This document shows, in pieces, positions 46,782-52,700 of a DNA stretch of 64,000 bases. A program made the position numbers. This DNA is from Escherichia coli O157:H7 (GTDB lineage: Bacteria > Pseudomonadota > Gammaproteobacteria > Enterobacterales > Enterobacteriaceae): NCBI RefSeq assembly GCF_013167455.1, contig NZ_CP038328.1, one strand, 5' to 3'. Every line of letters starts with the position of its first letter. Positions within the stretch are counted from its first letter, which is position 1.

Positions 46782-49700
46782 AACAGTGCCGACTGCCTGA
46801 TGCGACGCTCGCGCGTCTTATCAGGCTTCCCTCTCATCTGTATAAATTTCGAACTACACTTAACTGGCTTCTCTTAACTGAGGTCACCATCATGCCGTTA
46901 AGTCCCTACCTCTCTTTTGCCGGTAACTGCTCCGACGCGATTGCCTATTATCAACGTACGTTGGGCGCTGAACTGCTCTATAAAATCAGCTTCGGCGAAA
47001 TGCCAAAATCAGCGCAGGACAGCGCCGAGAACTGCCCTTCCGGAATGCAATTTCCCGATACCGCCATCGCCCACGCCAATGTGCGCATTGCCGGAAGCGA
47101 TATCATGATGAGCGATGCTATACCGTCAGGAAAAGCCAGCTACTCCGGTTTTACGCTGGTGCTCGATTCGCAACAGGTCGAAGAAGGAAAACGCTGGTTT
47201 GATAACCTTGCCGCTAACGGAAAAATCGAAATGGCCTGGCAGGAAACTTTCTGGGCGCATGGCTTTGGCAAAGTCACCGATAAATTTGGCGTACCGTGGA
47301 TGATTAATGTCGTCAAACAACAACCAACGCAATAATCCGCCGGGAGGCCCGCCCTCCCGCACTGTCATCGAATTCCCGTTAACTCTTCATCTGTTAGTCA
47401 CTTTTAATTAACCAAATCGTCACAATAATCCGCCACGATGGAGCCACTTTTTTAGGGAGGCTGCATCATGCAAACGATTATCTGCGTCGAACAACTGAGC
47501 AAAACCTTCAACCAGCATCAGGCGCTGCACGCGGTTGATCTGAATATCCATCATGGTGAAATGGTGGCTCTGCTTGGGCCGTCCGGTTCCGGCAAATCCA
47601 CCCTTTTACGTCACTTAAGCGGTTTGATTACCGGCGATAAATCCGCCGGTAGCCATATCGAGCTGCTGGGCCGCACTGTCCAGCGCGAAGGCCGCCTGGC
47701 CCGCGATATCCGCAAAAGCCGCGCCAACACCGGCTACATCTTCCAACAATTCAACCTGGTGAATCGCCTGAGCGTACTGGAGAACGTGCTGATTGGCGCG
47801 CTCGGCAGCACGCCGTTCTGGCGCACCTGTTTTAGTTGGTTCACCCGCGAGCAGAAACAGCGCGCATTACAGGCGCTGACCCGCGTCGGTATGGCGCACT
47901 TTGCGTATCAGCGTGTTTCCACGCTCTCCGGCGGCCAGCAGCAGCGTGTGGCGATTGCCCGCGCGCTGATGCAGCAGGCGAAAGTGATTCTCGCTGACGA
48001 ACCGATCGCCTCGCTGGACCCGGAATCGGCGCGCATCGTGATGGACACCCTGCGCGACATCAACCAGAACGACGGCATCACCGTGGTCGTCACGCTGCAT
48101 CAGGTGGATTACGCCCTGCGCTACTGCGAACGCATCGTCGCCCTGCGCCAGGGGCACGTCTTCTACGACGGCAGCAGCCAACAGTTTGATAACGAACGTT
48201 TTGACCATCTCTACCGCAGCATCAACCGCGTCGAAGAGAACGCGAAAGCTGCCTGACATCCCCATCATTGAGGAAAACGAATGAACGCTAAGATAATTGC
48301 CTCGCTGGCCTTCACCAGCATGTTCAGCCTCAGCACCCTGTTAAGCCCGGCACACGCCGAAGAGCAGGAAAAGGCGCTGAATTTCGGCATTATTTCAACG
48401 GAATCACAGCAAAACCTGAAACCGCAATGGACGCCGTTTTTACAGGATATGGAGAAGAAGCTGGGCGTGAAGGTCAACGCCTTCTTTGCCCCGGACTATG
48501 CGGGCATTATCCAGGGAATGCGTTTCAACAAAGTGGATATCGCCTGGTACGGCAACCTGTCGGCGATGGAAGCAGTGGATCGCGCCAACGGCCAAGTCTT
48601 CGCTCAGACCGTCGCGGCGGATGGATCGCCGGGTTACTGGAGCGTGTTGATCGTCAACAAAGACAGCCCGATCAACAACCTGAACGATCTGCTGGCGAAG
48701 CGGAAAGATCTCACCTTCGGTAATGGCGATCCTAACTCCACCTCTGGCTTCCTCGTCCCCGGCTACTACGTCTTCTCCAAAAACAATATCTCCGCCAGTG
48801 ACTTCAAGCGCACCGTCAACGCCGGGCATGAAACCAACGCGCTGGCCGTCGCCAACAAGCAGGTGGATGTGGCGACCAACAACACCGAAAACCTCGACAA
48901 GCTGAAAACCTCCGCGCCGGAGAAGCTGAAAGAACTGAAAGTGATCTGGAAGTCACCGCTGATCCCAGGCGATCCGATCGTCTGGCGTAAAAACCTTTCC
49001 GAAACCACCAAAGACAAGATCTACGACTTCTTTATGAATTACGGCAAGACGCCGGAAGAGAAAGCGGTGCTGGAACGCCTGGGCTGGGCGCCGTTCCGCG
49101 CCTCCAGCGACCTGCAACTGGTGCCGATTCGCCAGCTCGCACTGTTTAAAGAGATGCAAAGCGTGAAAGGCAATAAAGGGCTGAATGAGCAGGACAAGCT
49201 GGCAAAAACCACCGAGATTCAAGCGCAGCTGGATGACCTGGACCGCCTGAACAACGCGTTAAGCGCGATGAGTTCGGTAAGTAAAGCGATGCAGTAAATC
49301 GTAGGTCGGATAAGACGCCCCGGTGTCGCATCCGACAATGTGCAGGCGTTGATGCCGGATGCGGTGCAAGCACCTTATCCGGCCTACAGACCGGAGCCAA
49401 ACATGCAAACCATCACCATCGCCCCACCCAAGCGCAGCTGGTTCTCGCTTCTGAGCTGGGCCGTTGTACTCGCCGTGTTGGTCGTCTCGTGGCAGGGCGC
49501 GGAAATGGCCCCGCTCACGCTGATCAAAGACGGCGGCAACATGGCGACCTTCGCCGCCGACTTCTTCCCGCCCGATTTCAGCCAGTGGCAGGATTACCTC
49601 ACCGAAATGCTCGTCACGCTGCAAATCGCCGTCTGGGGCACCGCGCTGGCGGTGGTTCTCTCCATCCCCTTCGGCCTGATGAGCGCCGAAAACCTGGTGC

Positions 49701-52700
49701 CGTGGTGGGTTTACCAGCCCGTGCGCCGCCTGATGGACGCCTGCCGCGCCATTAACGAAATGGTCTTCGCCATGCTGTTCGTGGTCGCCGTCGGCCTCGG
49801 CCCATTCGCTGGTGTGCTGGCGCTGTTTATCCACACCACCGGTGTGCTCTCCAAACTGCTTTCCGAAGCGGTGGAAGCGATTGAACCCGGCCCGGTGGAA
49901 GGCATTCGCGCCACCGGCGCCAACAAGCTCGAAGAGATCCTCTACGGCGTGCTGCCGCAGGTGATGCCGCTGCTGATCTCCTACTCCCTCTATCGCTTCG
50001 AATCCAACGTCCGCTCGGCGACCGTCGTCGGCATGGTCGGCGCGGGCGGGATCGGCGTCACGCTGTGGGAAGCGATTCGCGGTTTCCAGTTCCAGCAAAC
50101 CTGCGCCCTGATGGTGCTGATTATCGTCACGGTCAGCCTGCTGGATTTCCTCTCTCAACGGTTGCGTAAGCACTTTATCTGATTAGCGAGGCATTGATAG
50201 CTATGCACTTGTCTACACATCCGACCAGCTACCCAACACGCTATCAGGAGATAGCCGCAAAACTTGAGCAGGAGCTTCGTCAACACTACCGCTGCGGCGA
50301 CTATCTTCCCGCCGAGCAGCAGCTGGCGGCGCGCTTTGAGGTAAATCGCCACACCCTGCGCCGCGCCATCGACCAACTGGTGGAAAAAGGCTGGGTACAG
50401 CGCCGTCAGGGCGTCGGCGTGCTGGTGCTGATGCGCCCGTTCGATTACCCGCTCAACGCCCAGGCGCGTTTTAGCCAGAATCTGCTGGATCAGGGCAGCC
50501 ATCCCACCAGCGAAAAACTGCTGTCTGTGCTGCGCCCGGCCTCCGGTCACGTCGCTGACGCGCTGGGGATAACCGAGGGGGAGAACGTCATCCATCTGCG
50601 CACCCTGCGCCGGGTCAACGGCATCGCGCTCTGTTTAATCGACCACTACTTCGCGGACCTCACCCTCTGGCCGACGCTGCAACGCTTCGACAGCGGCTCG
50701 CTGCACGATTTTCTGCGCGAGCAAACGGGGATTGCACTGCGCCGCAGCCAGACGCGGATCAGCGCCCGCCGCGCCCAGGCCAAAGAGTGCCAGCGTCTTG
50801 AAATTCCGAATATGTCCCCGCTGCTGTGCGTGCGCACCCTTAACCACCGTGACGGTGAAAGCAGCCCGGCGGAGTACTCCGTCAGCCTGACGCGCGCCGA
50901 CATGATTGAATTCACTATGGAGCACTGAATGCACGCAGATACCGCGACCCGCCAGCACTGGATGTCCGTACTGGCACACAGCCAACCGGCAGAACTGGCA
51001 GCCCGCCTGAACGCGCTGAACATCACCGCCAACTATGAGGTGATCCGCGCCGCTGAAACTGGCCTGGTACAGATTCAGGCGCGGATGGGCGGCACCGGCG
51101 AACGCTTTTTTGCCGGCGACGCCACGCTGACCCGCGCCGCCGTACGTCTGACTGACGGCACCCTCGGCTACAGCTGGGTGCTGGGGCGCGACAAACAGCA
51201 CGCCGAACGCTGCGCGCTGATTGACGCGCTGATGCAGCAAACCCGCCATTTTCAAAACTTATCAGAAACGCTTATTGCCCCGCTGGACGCTGACCGTATG
51301 GCACGCATTGCCGCACGCCAGGCCGAAGTGAACGCCAGCCGGGTCGACTTCTTTACGATGGTTCGCGGAGACAACGCATGACCCTGGAAACCGCTTTTAT
51401 GCTTCCCGTGCAGGATGCCCAGCACAGTTTTCGTCGCCTGTTAAAGGCCATGAGCGAGCCGGGCGTGATTGTCGCCCTGCATCAGCTCAAACGCGGCTGG
51501 CAGCCGCTGAATATCGCCACCACCAGCGTGCTGCTGACGCTGGCCGATAACGACACGCCGGTGTGGCTTGCCGCGCCATTGAGCAACGATATCGTCAGCC
51601 AGAGCCTGCGTTTTCATACCAACGCGCCGCTGGTCAGCCAGCCGGAACAGGCGACCTTCGCGGTAACGGATGAGGCGATTTCCAGCGAACAGCTTAACGC
51701 CCTTTCCACCGGCACCGCCGTTGCGCCGGAAGCGGGCGCAACGCTGATTTTACAGGTCGCCAGCCTGAGCGGCGGGCGCATGCTGCGTCTCACCGGCGCG
51801 GGTATTGCCGAAGAACGAATGATCGCCCCGCAGCTGCCGAAGTGCATTCTGCACGAACTCACCGAGCGCCCGCACCCGTTCCCGCTCGGCATCGACCTGA
51901 TCCTGACCTGCGGCGAGCGCCTGCTGGCTGTTCCGCGAACCACTCATGTGGAGGTGTGCTGATGTACGTTGCCGTGAAAGGGGGCGAGAAGGCGATCGAC
52001 GCCGCCCACGCCCTGCAAGAGAGCCGACGCCGGGGCGATACCGATTTGCCTGAACTGAGCGTCGCCCAGATTGAACAGCAGCTTAATCTTGCGGTGGATC
52101 GCGTGATGACCGAAGGCGGCATTGCCGACCGCGAGCTGGCGGCGCTGGCGCTGAAACAGGCCAGCGGCGATAACGTCGAAGCAATTTTCCTGCTGCGCGC
52201 CTACCGCACCACGCTGGCGAAGCTCGCGGTAAGCGAGCCGCTCGACACCACGGAGATGCGTCTCGAACGGCGTATTTCAGCGGTTTATAAAGATATTCCC
52301 GGCGGCCAGCTGCTTGGCCCAACCTACGACTACACCCATCGCCTGCTCGATTTCACCCTGCTGGCAAACGGCGAAGCGCCGACGCTGACCACCGCCGACA
52401 GCGAACAGCAGCCGTCGCCGCACGTTTTCAGCCTGCTGGCGCGTCAGGGGCTGGCGAAGTTTGAAGAGGATAGCGGCGCACAGCCGGATGACATCACCCG
52501 CACGCCACCGGTTTACCCCTGCTCACGTTCTTCCCGCCTGCAACAGCTCATGCGCGGCGACGAAGGCTATTTGCTGGCGCTGGCCTACTCCACCCAACGC
52601 GGTTACGGGCGCAATCACCCGTTCGCGGGTGAAATCCGCAGTGGTTACATCGACGTGTCGATTGTGCCCGAAGAGCTGGGATTTGCGGTGAACGTCGGCG

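Follow-up and report, generated by a model that had tools for sequence, protein, structure and literature searches.

phnE in E. coli B, K-12 and the K-12 revertants

The phosphonate permease gene of E. coli K-12 MG1655, phnE (b4583), bears a pseudogene flag and carries three 8-bp units, GCTGGCGT GCTGGCGT GCTGGCGC. With the third unit GCTGGCGT, which begins at nt 406 of the ORF, K-12 PhnE shifts frame around residue 140 and soon meets an early stop, and thus lacks the EAA-type coupling loop. This OFF allele reverts via slippage at the 8-bp site (PMC6469041, citing Makino 1991 and Iqbal 2004); the published phnE+ revertants show a deletion of 5′-GCTGGCGT, and transport was restored in such a minus-8 revertant (PMC6469041). 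E. coli B, in turn, has been described as proficient for growth on phosphonate (PMC3463581). In E. coli B/BL21, where phnE lies between phnD and phnF, and in the K-12 phnE+ revertants, the gene has two units and is 780 nt long, encoding 259 amino acids. That phnE of K-12 is frameshifted and can revert has been established since 1991, and a functional phnE in most E. coli is already in the literature. Here we compare these alleles with phnE in a 64,000-nt stretch of the E. coli O157:H7 contig NZ_CP038328.1 (the window), whose features are listed in Table 1.

Table 1. Features of the phn region, with positions in the window and the supporting evidence.
Feature	Position	Strand	Evidence
pho box, PhoB-binding region of phnC promoter	47391..47424	+	includes ATTAACCAAATCGTCACA at 47407-47424; identity to mapped K-12 site
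phnC, ATPase of phosphonate ABC importer	47468..48256	+	789 nt; gap-free vs MG1655; NF007438, 604 bits (cutoff 365)
phnD, periplasmic phosphonate-binding protein	48281..49297	+	TIGR03431, 376 bits (cutoff 261)
Inverted REP pair (BIME-like), phnD-phnE spacer	49301..49387	.	arms 49301-49337 and 49354-49387
phnE, intact ABC-importer membrane permease for phosphonate	49403..50182	+	ORF, profile matches, near-identity to E. coli B PhnE
Slippage site, two 8-bp units GCTGGTGT GCTGGCGC	49808-49823	+	alignment with MG1655
phnF, GntR-family regulator	50203..50928	+	NF007486, 518 bits; gap-free vs MG1655
phnG, C-P lyase core	50929-51381	+	
phnH, C-P lyase core	51378-51962	+	
phnI, C-P lyase core	51962-53026	+	
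phnJ, C-P lyase core	53019-53864	+	
phnK	53861..54619	+	TIGR02323, 411 bits
Inverted REP pair, phnK-phnL spacer	54626..54709	.	arms 54626-54659 and 54673-54709
phnL	54730-55410	+	gap-free vs MG1655
phnM	55407-56543	+	gap-free vs MG1655
phnN	56543-57100	+	gap-free vs MG1655
phnO with +1 T (TT to TTT, 57103-57105) at codon 6	57087..57522	+	alignment with MG1655
phnP	57524..58282	+	759 nt; gap-free vs MG1655; PF12706

Reading frame and product of phnE

The initial annotation had described phnE as uninterrupted over 259 codons, and this reading holds: the frame runs from ATG 49403 to a TGA at 50180-50182 (780 nt, 259 codons plus the stop) with no internal stop, and alignment revealed neither a hidden frameshift nor a premature stop. 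A GGAG at 49393-49396 lies 6 nt 5′ of the ATG, and the same start is chosen by RefSeq in identical O157:H7 genomes. Two upstream starts, GTG 49340 and ATG 49352, were rejected since both lie within or at the edge of a REP hairpin; they are further disfavoured by the GGAG preceding ATG 49403 and by the PhnE profile, whose match starts at residue 16 of the 259-aa protein. ATG 49352 is the start used for the MG1655 phnE pseudogene. A 304-aa antisense ORF on the minus strand (49259-50173) was also set aside as a GC-rich shadow frame, the plus-strand frame being the real one by its TIGR01097 score.

The product scores 312.6 bits against the NCBIfam equivalog TIGR01097 (cutoff 216.7), covering profile positions 8-251 of 252, and 91.8 bits over residues 88-258 against PF00528, the membrane domain of binding-protein-dependent transporters. 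An EAA-type coupling loop, which K-12 PhnE loses, can be read at residues 166-185 (E166-G-I-x3-G172-x9-G-V-L184-P185), where the EAA-x3-G-x9-I-x-LP spacing is kept. The neighbouring PhnC and PhnD exceed their own equivalog cutoffs, giving PhnE the genomic context of a phosphonate importer, and all three proteins are full-length. Two type I ABC importers of solved structure have permeases, MetI and that of Art(QN)2, that align with PhnE in the region of the BPD_transp_1 fold (MetI with E = 5e-6 over residues 125-254), in both cases as a distant sequence similarity only; the sequence search returned no solved structure of PhnE itself.

E. coli B PhnE and an in-silico K-12 revertant (minus 8 bp) each match PhnE of the window at 258 of 259 residues, the sole difference in each comparison being A70L. 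This substitution results from a double-nucleotide change, GCC to CTC, specific to the O157:H7-related clade; the exact phnE allele carrying it occurs in only 367 records, and the identical protein is found on at least 1000 public contigs, named PhnE.

The slippage site and its alleles in E. coli

Pairwise alignment with MG1655 phnE showed the 8-bp difference directly, in agreement with the 8-bp duplication described for K-12 and with the pseudogene flag of b4583. Because the window has only two of the 8-bp units and lacks the additional GCTGGCGT of K-12, its phnE frame is open. The locus otherwise resembles that of MG1655 (96.9% nucleotide identity), with flanks, REP spacer and promoter in common. 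Relative to the two-unit site of E. coli B and the revertants, the window carries a synonymous C-to-T change in the first unit, which makes the repeat less perfect: its units, GCTGGTGT and GCTGGCGC, differ at two of eight positions, leaving an exact direct repeat of 5 nt versus 7 nt in the K-12-type two-unit allele.

The three-unit (K-12-type, +8) allele was present in 1012 of 5426 complete E. coli genomes (~19%) and in 11 of 59 genomes of an evenly spaced sample, so that the intact allele accounts for ~81%, or about four in five, of the complete genomes. It extends beyond laboratory strains to natural isolates from cattle, poultry, humans and seawater, and none of the sampled O157:H7 genomes carried it, all being two-unit. 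The initial annotation had implied that an intact phnE is noteworthy and K-12 the standard; this contrast is reversed, as an intact phnE is the norm in E. coli, as the literature already states, and the K-12 copy is the exception. The window phnE is thus real, correctly read, already known and ordinary in E. coli, and finding it intact carries little weight beyond correct annotation. In practice, K-12 serves poorly as a reference when phosphonate uptake, or phosphate uptake through PhnCDE, is considered in pathogenic E. coli; the OFF allele is common to about one in five complete E. coli genomes.

The phnC promoter and the operon

The 132-bp yjdN-phnC spacer is identical to that of MG1655 at 131 positions and includes the 18-mer ATTAACCAAATCGTCACA, which is the PhoB motif given for MG1655 phnC on the basis of ChIP-seq (PMC10294691). 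A scan with the 18-bp pho-box consensus (CTGTCATAWAWCTGTCAY, at most 5 mismatches) did not match the phnC promoter; because the site fits the consensus poorly, it is the identity to the ChIP-seq-mapped K-12 site that supports PhoB binding. A sigma-70 consensus scan of the same spacer found no promoter, which says little, PhoB-dependent promoters being without a −35 match. In O157:H7, low Pi was reported to raise phnC expression 81-fold, with a PhoB-dependent induction of 11.6-fold (PMC3978041). Judged by its identity to the K-12 site, the promoter upstream of phnC is PhoB-dependent, as the initial annotation had proposed.

All 14 genes of phnCDEFGHIJKLMNOP are present and in order, and 13 of them align without gaps to MG1655 and have no internal stops. 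The operon had been called complete; this is correct for gene content and collinearity, but not for phnO, where a 1-nt insertion leaves three stops in the K-12 frame, so that the 14 cistrons are not all open. PhnC and PhnD share 97.0% and 98.8% amino acid identity, respectively, with their MG1655 counterparts. The phnG-phnJ block (50929..53864) matches TIGR03293, TIGR03292, PF05861 (515 bits) and PF06007 (502 bits) and is gap-free relative to MG1655, and the phnL-phnN block (54730..57100) matches TIGR02324 and NF011981.

REP elements in two spacers

Hairpins formed by REP/BIME elements are known inside operons, as in malE-malF and hisJ-hisQ. The phn operon holds an inverted REP pair in each of the two spacers where such elements had been noted, phnD-phnE and phnK-phnL, and both spacers show the consensus, the imperfect palindromes, the extragenic position and the inverted pairing of REP/BIME elements. 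The phnD-phnE spacer contains matches to the REP consensus and the phnK-phnL spacer an exact match, with none expected by chance in either case; their predicted folds have energies of −47.9 and −55.5 kcal/mol, respectively. The phnD-phnE pair also reaches 63 bits against the Rfam model of the REP-derived naRNA4, RF02564 (gathering score 59.5), at 49304-49384. Its first arm opens 4 nt past the phnD stop, and the pair thus directly follows a periplasmic binding protein gene and precedes a permease gene, as in malE-malF and hisJ-hisQ. The pairs after phnD and phnK are typical intra-operon hairpins; by analogy with malE-malF, they would be expected to shield the upstream mRNA and to set unequal expression of the adjacent cistrons. 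The length of the phnD-phnE spacer differs among E. coli.

Proposed function and alternative readings

The window phnE is very probably an ordinary ON allele of ancestral type, encoding a full-length permease in a PhoB-activated phosphonate-import operon. With two units at the known slippage site, the frame is open and encodes a full-length type I ABC-importer permease, which together with the ATPase PhnC and the binding protein PhnD should import phosphonates and also orthophosphate, while the PhoB-activated phnC promoter would drive PhnCDE under phosphate starvation. With phnG-phnN and phnP, the genes for C-P lyase, all intact, the imported substrate could be used, and growth on phosphonates would be predicted. 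We infer transport by this PhnE from its near identity to the E. coli B and K-12 revertant proteins, together with the literature on both. Points that run against this reading are the clade-specific A70L, the poor fit of the phnC site to the pho-box consensus, and the frameshift of phnO at codon 6, which may narrow the range of usable substrates.

The phnO insertion is an O157:H7-clade allele, found in its exact form in 296 records, and a literature search on a phnO frameshift in O157 returned nothing. It bears on a reading in which the phnE ORF is intact and the pathway is nevertheless impaired in this lineage, the frameshift abolishing PhnO and perhaps lowering phnP translation. Phosphonate proficiency would in that case be only partial: as recorded for phnO-null strains (PMC3463581), the strain could not use aminomethylphosphonate, and (S)-1-aminoethylphosphonate would kill it. 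The K-12 ATG frame (ATG 57087) indeed ends after 29 codons, and RefSeq flags phnO as a "frameshifted" pseudogene in O157:H7 strain PV15-279, whose sequence is identical across the site. However, GTG 57097 shares bases with the phnN stop (GTGA), as is usual where the translation of two genes is coupled, and opens an in-frame product of 141 aa, with three residues fewer and two further N-terminal differences, which fits the PhnO model NF007530 at positions 5-144 of 144 with 302 bits. An AGGAG precedes the old ATG by 8 nt and this GTG by about 18 nt, a spacing that again favours impairment, whereas the downstream frame is still open across the clade and some annotators call the 141-aa protein; PhnO could still be made from the GTG start. 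Moreover, phnO is dispensable for the use of 2-aminoethyl- and 3-aminopropylphosphonate (PMC3463581). Weighing these points, we regard an impaired pathway as a serious but somewhat doubtful possibility. More tentative, and rather unlikely, is the broader proposal that the phn operon was remodelled in two small respects in the O157:H7 clade, phnE being effectively locked ON through the synonymous change that degrades the repeat, and phnO being moved to a GTG start with PhnO probably lowered or abolished. If PhnO were lost, the lineage would import phosphonates constitutively under Pi starvation, yet could not use aminomethylphosphonate, which is what glyphosate is mainly broken down to, and would be sensitive to (S)-1-aminoethylphosphonate, a lineage-specific and easily tested phenotype. 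Annotations of O157:H7 conflict, some treating phnO as a gene and others as a pseudogene, with consequences for metabolic models of how aminophosphonates are used.

Two other readings concern phnE itself. Slippage in K-12 and the three-unit alleles of natural isolates would suit a phase-variable contingency gene, here in its ON phase and turned OFF by gain of an 8-bp unit. Yet a slippage-controlled allele would have three units, or two near-identical ones, and the window has neither; slippage would be expected to be rarer with its 5-nt exact repeat than with the 7-nt repeat, and the sampled O157:H7 genomes are uniformly two-unit, so that phase variation appears highly improbable. An intact PhnCDE that mainly scavenges orthophosphate rather than phosphonates is scarcely more probable, even though Pi uptake by PhnCDE in a K-12 phnE+ revertant is kinetically comparable to that by PitA and sustains growth (PMC6469041): this role still allows phosphonate uptake, the two being compatible, and the transporter genes share their transcript with a full set of C-P lyase genes.

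Comparison with O157:H7 strain PV15-279

A naive position-by-position comparison with the PV15-279 locus gave 10,328 mismatches, which were discarded as an indel artefact rather than divergence. PV15-279 differs by a 66-bp in-frame expansion in phnC and by a 9-bp VNTR difference, and two realigned stretches, phnC (47316-48400) and a kinase gene (60201-61300), showed no substitutions relative to the window.

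phnE and the 8-bp Slippage Site

In the window, phnE, the membrane permease gene of the phosphonate ABC importer PhnCDE, is an open ATG–TGA frame of 780 nt with 259 sense codons and no internal stops, preceded by a GGAG 6 nt 5′ of the ATG. The protein scores 312.6 bits against the NCBIfam equivalog TIGR01097 (PhnE; curated cutoff 216.7 bits) over profile positions 8–251 of 252, and 91.8 bits against Pfam PF00528, and its sequence contains an EAA-type coupling loop, E166...G172...L184-P185. At least 1000 public contigs encode an identical 259-aa protein under the name PhnE, and in PV15-279, an O157:H7 comparison strain, the same gene is annotated phnE (WP_001302225.1) between phnD and phnF in phnCDEFGHIJKLMNOP. 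Across the surrounding 1-kb region, identity is 100% to many E. coli O157:H7 chromosomes and 95–98% to other E. coli. An antisense ORF of 304 aa was rejected as a shadow frame of the GC-rich phnE, the family scores showing the plus frame to be the real one.

The initial annotation, which took phnE to be intact and the K-12 copy to be a pseudogene through an 8-bp duplication, was correct on both points. MG1655 phnE (b4583) carries a pseudogene flag, the same gene is annotated "frameshifted" in a K-12-serotype genome, and pairwise alignment with MG1655, which reveals no frameshift or premature stop in the window gene, contains only one indel, i.e., the 8-bp difference. The slippage site of MG1655 has three units, TTC GCTGGCGT GCTGGCGT GCTGGCGC TG, whereas that of the window has two, TTC GCTGGTGT GCTGGCGC TG. 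The repeat begins at nt 406 of the K-12 ORF, in agreement with the published phnE+ revertants, in which 5′-GCTGGCGT is deleted at 407–414 (PMC6469041). Translation of the K-12 gene loses the frame near residue 140 and stops early; the product thus lacks the coupling loop. The two window units are mismatched at 2 of 8 positions, leaving an exact direct repeat of 5 nt, compared with 7 nt in a K-12-type two-unit allele, from which we infer that the window allele may be less prone to slip to OFF.

A 61-nt probe was built to align over at least 80% of its length with three-unit alleles alone. By this criterion, the three-unit allele is carried by 1012 of the 5426 complete E. coli genomes (18.7%), and the carriers include K-12 laboratory derivatives as well as cattle, poultry, human and seawater isolates. 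An evenly spaced sample of phnE matches showed the +8 span in 11 of 59 and a −2 span in one. The reading of phnE is essentially right and the finding real; intact versus broken phnE is a textbook point on which K-12 departs from most other E. coli, and the gene, protein, promoter and repeats are all already catalogued.

Likely Function of the Window PhnE

Removing one unit from MG1655 phnE in silico yields a protein identical to the window PhnE except for A70L, which is again the sole difference from PhnE of the E. coli B derivative Nico21(DE3) (258/259 identical). E. coli B is described as proficient in growth on phosphonate, and K-12 minus-8 revertants recover phosphonate use (PMC3463581) as well as transport (PMC6469041). 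A70L, which arises from two adjacent nucleotide changes, is predicted to be conservative; records with the exact L70 (CTC) allele number only 367 and belong essentially to the O157:H7-related clade. The partner proteins PhnC (ATPase) and PhnD (periplasmic binding protein) are full-length (97.0% and 98.8% identical to their K-12 counterparts, respectively), and both score above the equivalog cutoffs.

Promoter, Operon and phnO

The 132-bp yjdN–phnC spacer is identical to MG1655 at 131 of 132 positions and contains the PhoB motif given for the MG1655 phnC ChIP-seq peak; in that strain PhoB activates the operon as a whole (PMC10294691). In O157:H7, Pi limitation raises phnC 81-fold, and a PhoB-dependent comparison gives an 11.6-fold rise (PMC3978041). 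Because this site escaped both a strict scan with the pho-box consensus and a sigma-70 scan, the proposed PhoB-box promoter is upheld by identity to the mapped K-12 site rather than by consensus matching. The window phnC has the normal 789 nt; that of PV15-279 carries an in-frame 66-bp (2 × 33 bp) tandem expansion to 855 nt (10623–10688 in L003, the phn-locus record of that strain).

The operon had also been called complete, which holds for 13 of 14 cistrons, all gap-free relative to MG1655 and without internal stops (96.8% to 99.6% amino-acid identity, with the expected family matches), but is overstated for phnO. This gene carries an extra T relative to K-12 (TT → TTT) at codon 6, and the frame from the K-12 ATG now ends after 29 codons. 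RefSeq flags phnO as "frameshifted" in PV15-279, whose sequence across the insertion is identical. The exact +T allele is found in 296 records and the extra base is absent from all other sampled genomes, marking it as an O157:H7 clade marker. A GTG that shares bases with the phnN stop codon (GTGA) lies at the head of an open frame of 141 aa, (M)SFRPATQ..., which scores 302 bits against the PhnO model NF007530 (positions 5–144 of 144), and initiation there would yield a 141-aa PhnO; annotators are split between a frameshifted pseudogene and a 141-aa protein. phnO is required for use of aminomethylphosphonate and (S)-1-aminoethylphosphonate, and for survival of the latter, and is dispensable for 2-aminoethyl- and 3-aminopropylphosphonate (PMC3463581). 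The phnO frameshift leaves the inference of phosphonate uptake unaffected. This O157:H7-specific start-region frameshift, missed by the initial annotation, is the only point meriting a second look.

REP Elements and Other Features

REP elements were also placed correctly in the phnD–phnE and phnK–phnL spacers, each of which holds an inverted pair, with zero pattern matches expected by chance and folding energies of −47.9 and −55.5 kcal/mol, respectively. The phnD–phnE pair scores 63 bits (gathering score 59.5) against Rfam RF02564, a model built on REP-pair RNA. By analogy with malE–malF, the hairpins probably make the upstream mRNA more stable and play a part in the uneven expression of the cistrons. 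The length of the phnD–phnE spacer is not constant among E. coli, and a 1001-bp phnE-region query matches many genomes in two pieces (91% coverage), with spans of about 956 to 1021 bp. Two strong matches to naRNA4 (RF02564), a REP-derived nucleoid-associated RNA, coincide with REP consensus matches directly 5′ of yjdN, and hence 5′ of the phn operon.

Positions of features in the window
Feature	Position (strand)	Detail
tRNA-Phe	10404–10476 (+)	Rfam
Integrase fragment	about 10676–10835	converted from matching O157:H7 record's annotation
STnc630	40819–40984 (−)	full-length Rfam match, 178.5 bits
naRNA4 matches	46651–46727, 46751–46827 (+)	97.9 and 105.1 bits
PhoB motif	47407–47424	ATTAACCAAATCGTCACA
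phnC site matching PV15-279 expansion	47938	
Opposite-strand ORF (rejected)	49259–50173	
phnD–phnE spacer	49298–49402	
Inverted REP pair, phnD–phnE spacer	49301–49337 and 49354–49387	pattern matches
GGAG	49393–49396	
phnE	49403–50182 (+)	
phnE codon 70	49610–49612	GCC → CTC
Slippage site	49808–49823	two units
Inverted REP pair, phnK–phnL spacer	54626–54659 and 54673–54709	pattern matches
phnO	57087–57522	K-12 ATG at 57087
GTG	57097	
phnO extra T	57103–57105	
Sensor kinase and sugar ABC genes	58757–62661	
Hybrid sensor kinase ORF	58757–61204 (−)	
9-bp tandem repeat	60347–60372	ATCATTGAA, 2.9 copies

The window genes downstream of yjdP are not those of K-12: a hybrid sensor kinase/response regulator gene and one for a sugar ABC-transporter ATPase (the latter with an annotated internal stop in PV15-279) occupy the place that rpiB-alsR-alsB has in MG1655. 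The perfect 9-bp repeat inside the kinase ORF has one copy more than in PV15-279, and is thus an in-frame VNTR in coding sequence. Elsewhere, a tyrosine recombinase/integrase fragment, frameshifted according to the matching O157:H7 record, lies about 200 bp from the tRNA-Phe gene and has the appearance of a scar left by an integrated element. The match to the enterobacterial sRNA STnc630 overlaps the place of the small gene pmrR beside pmrB.
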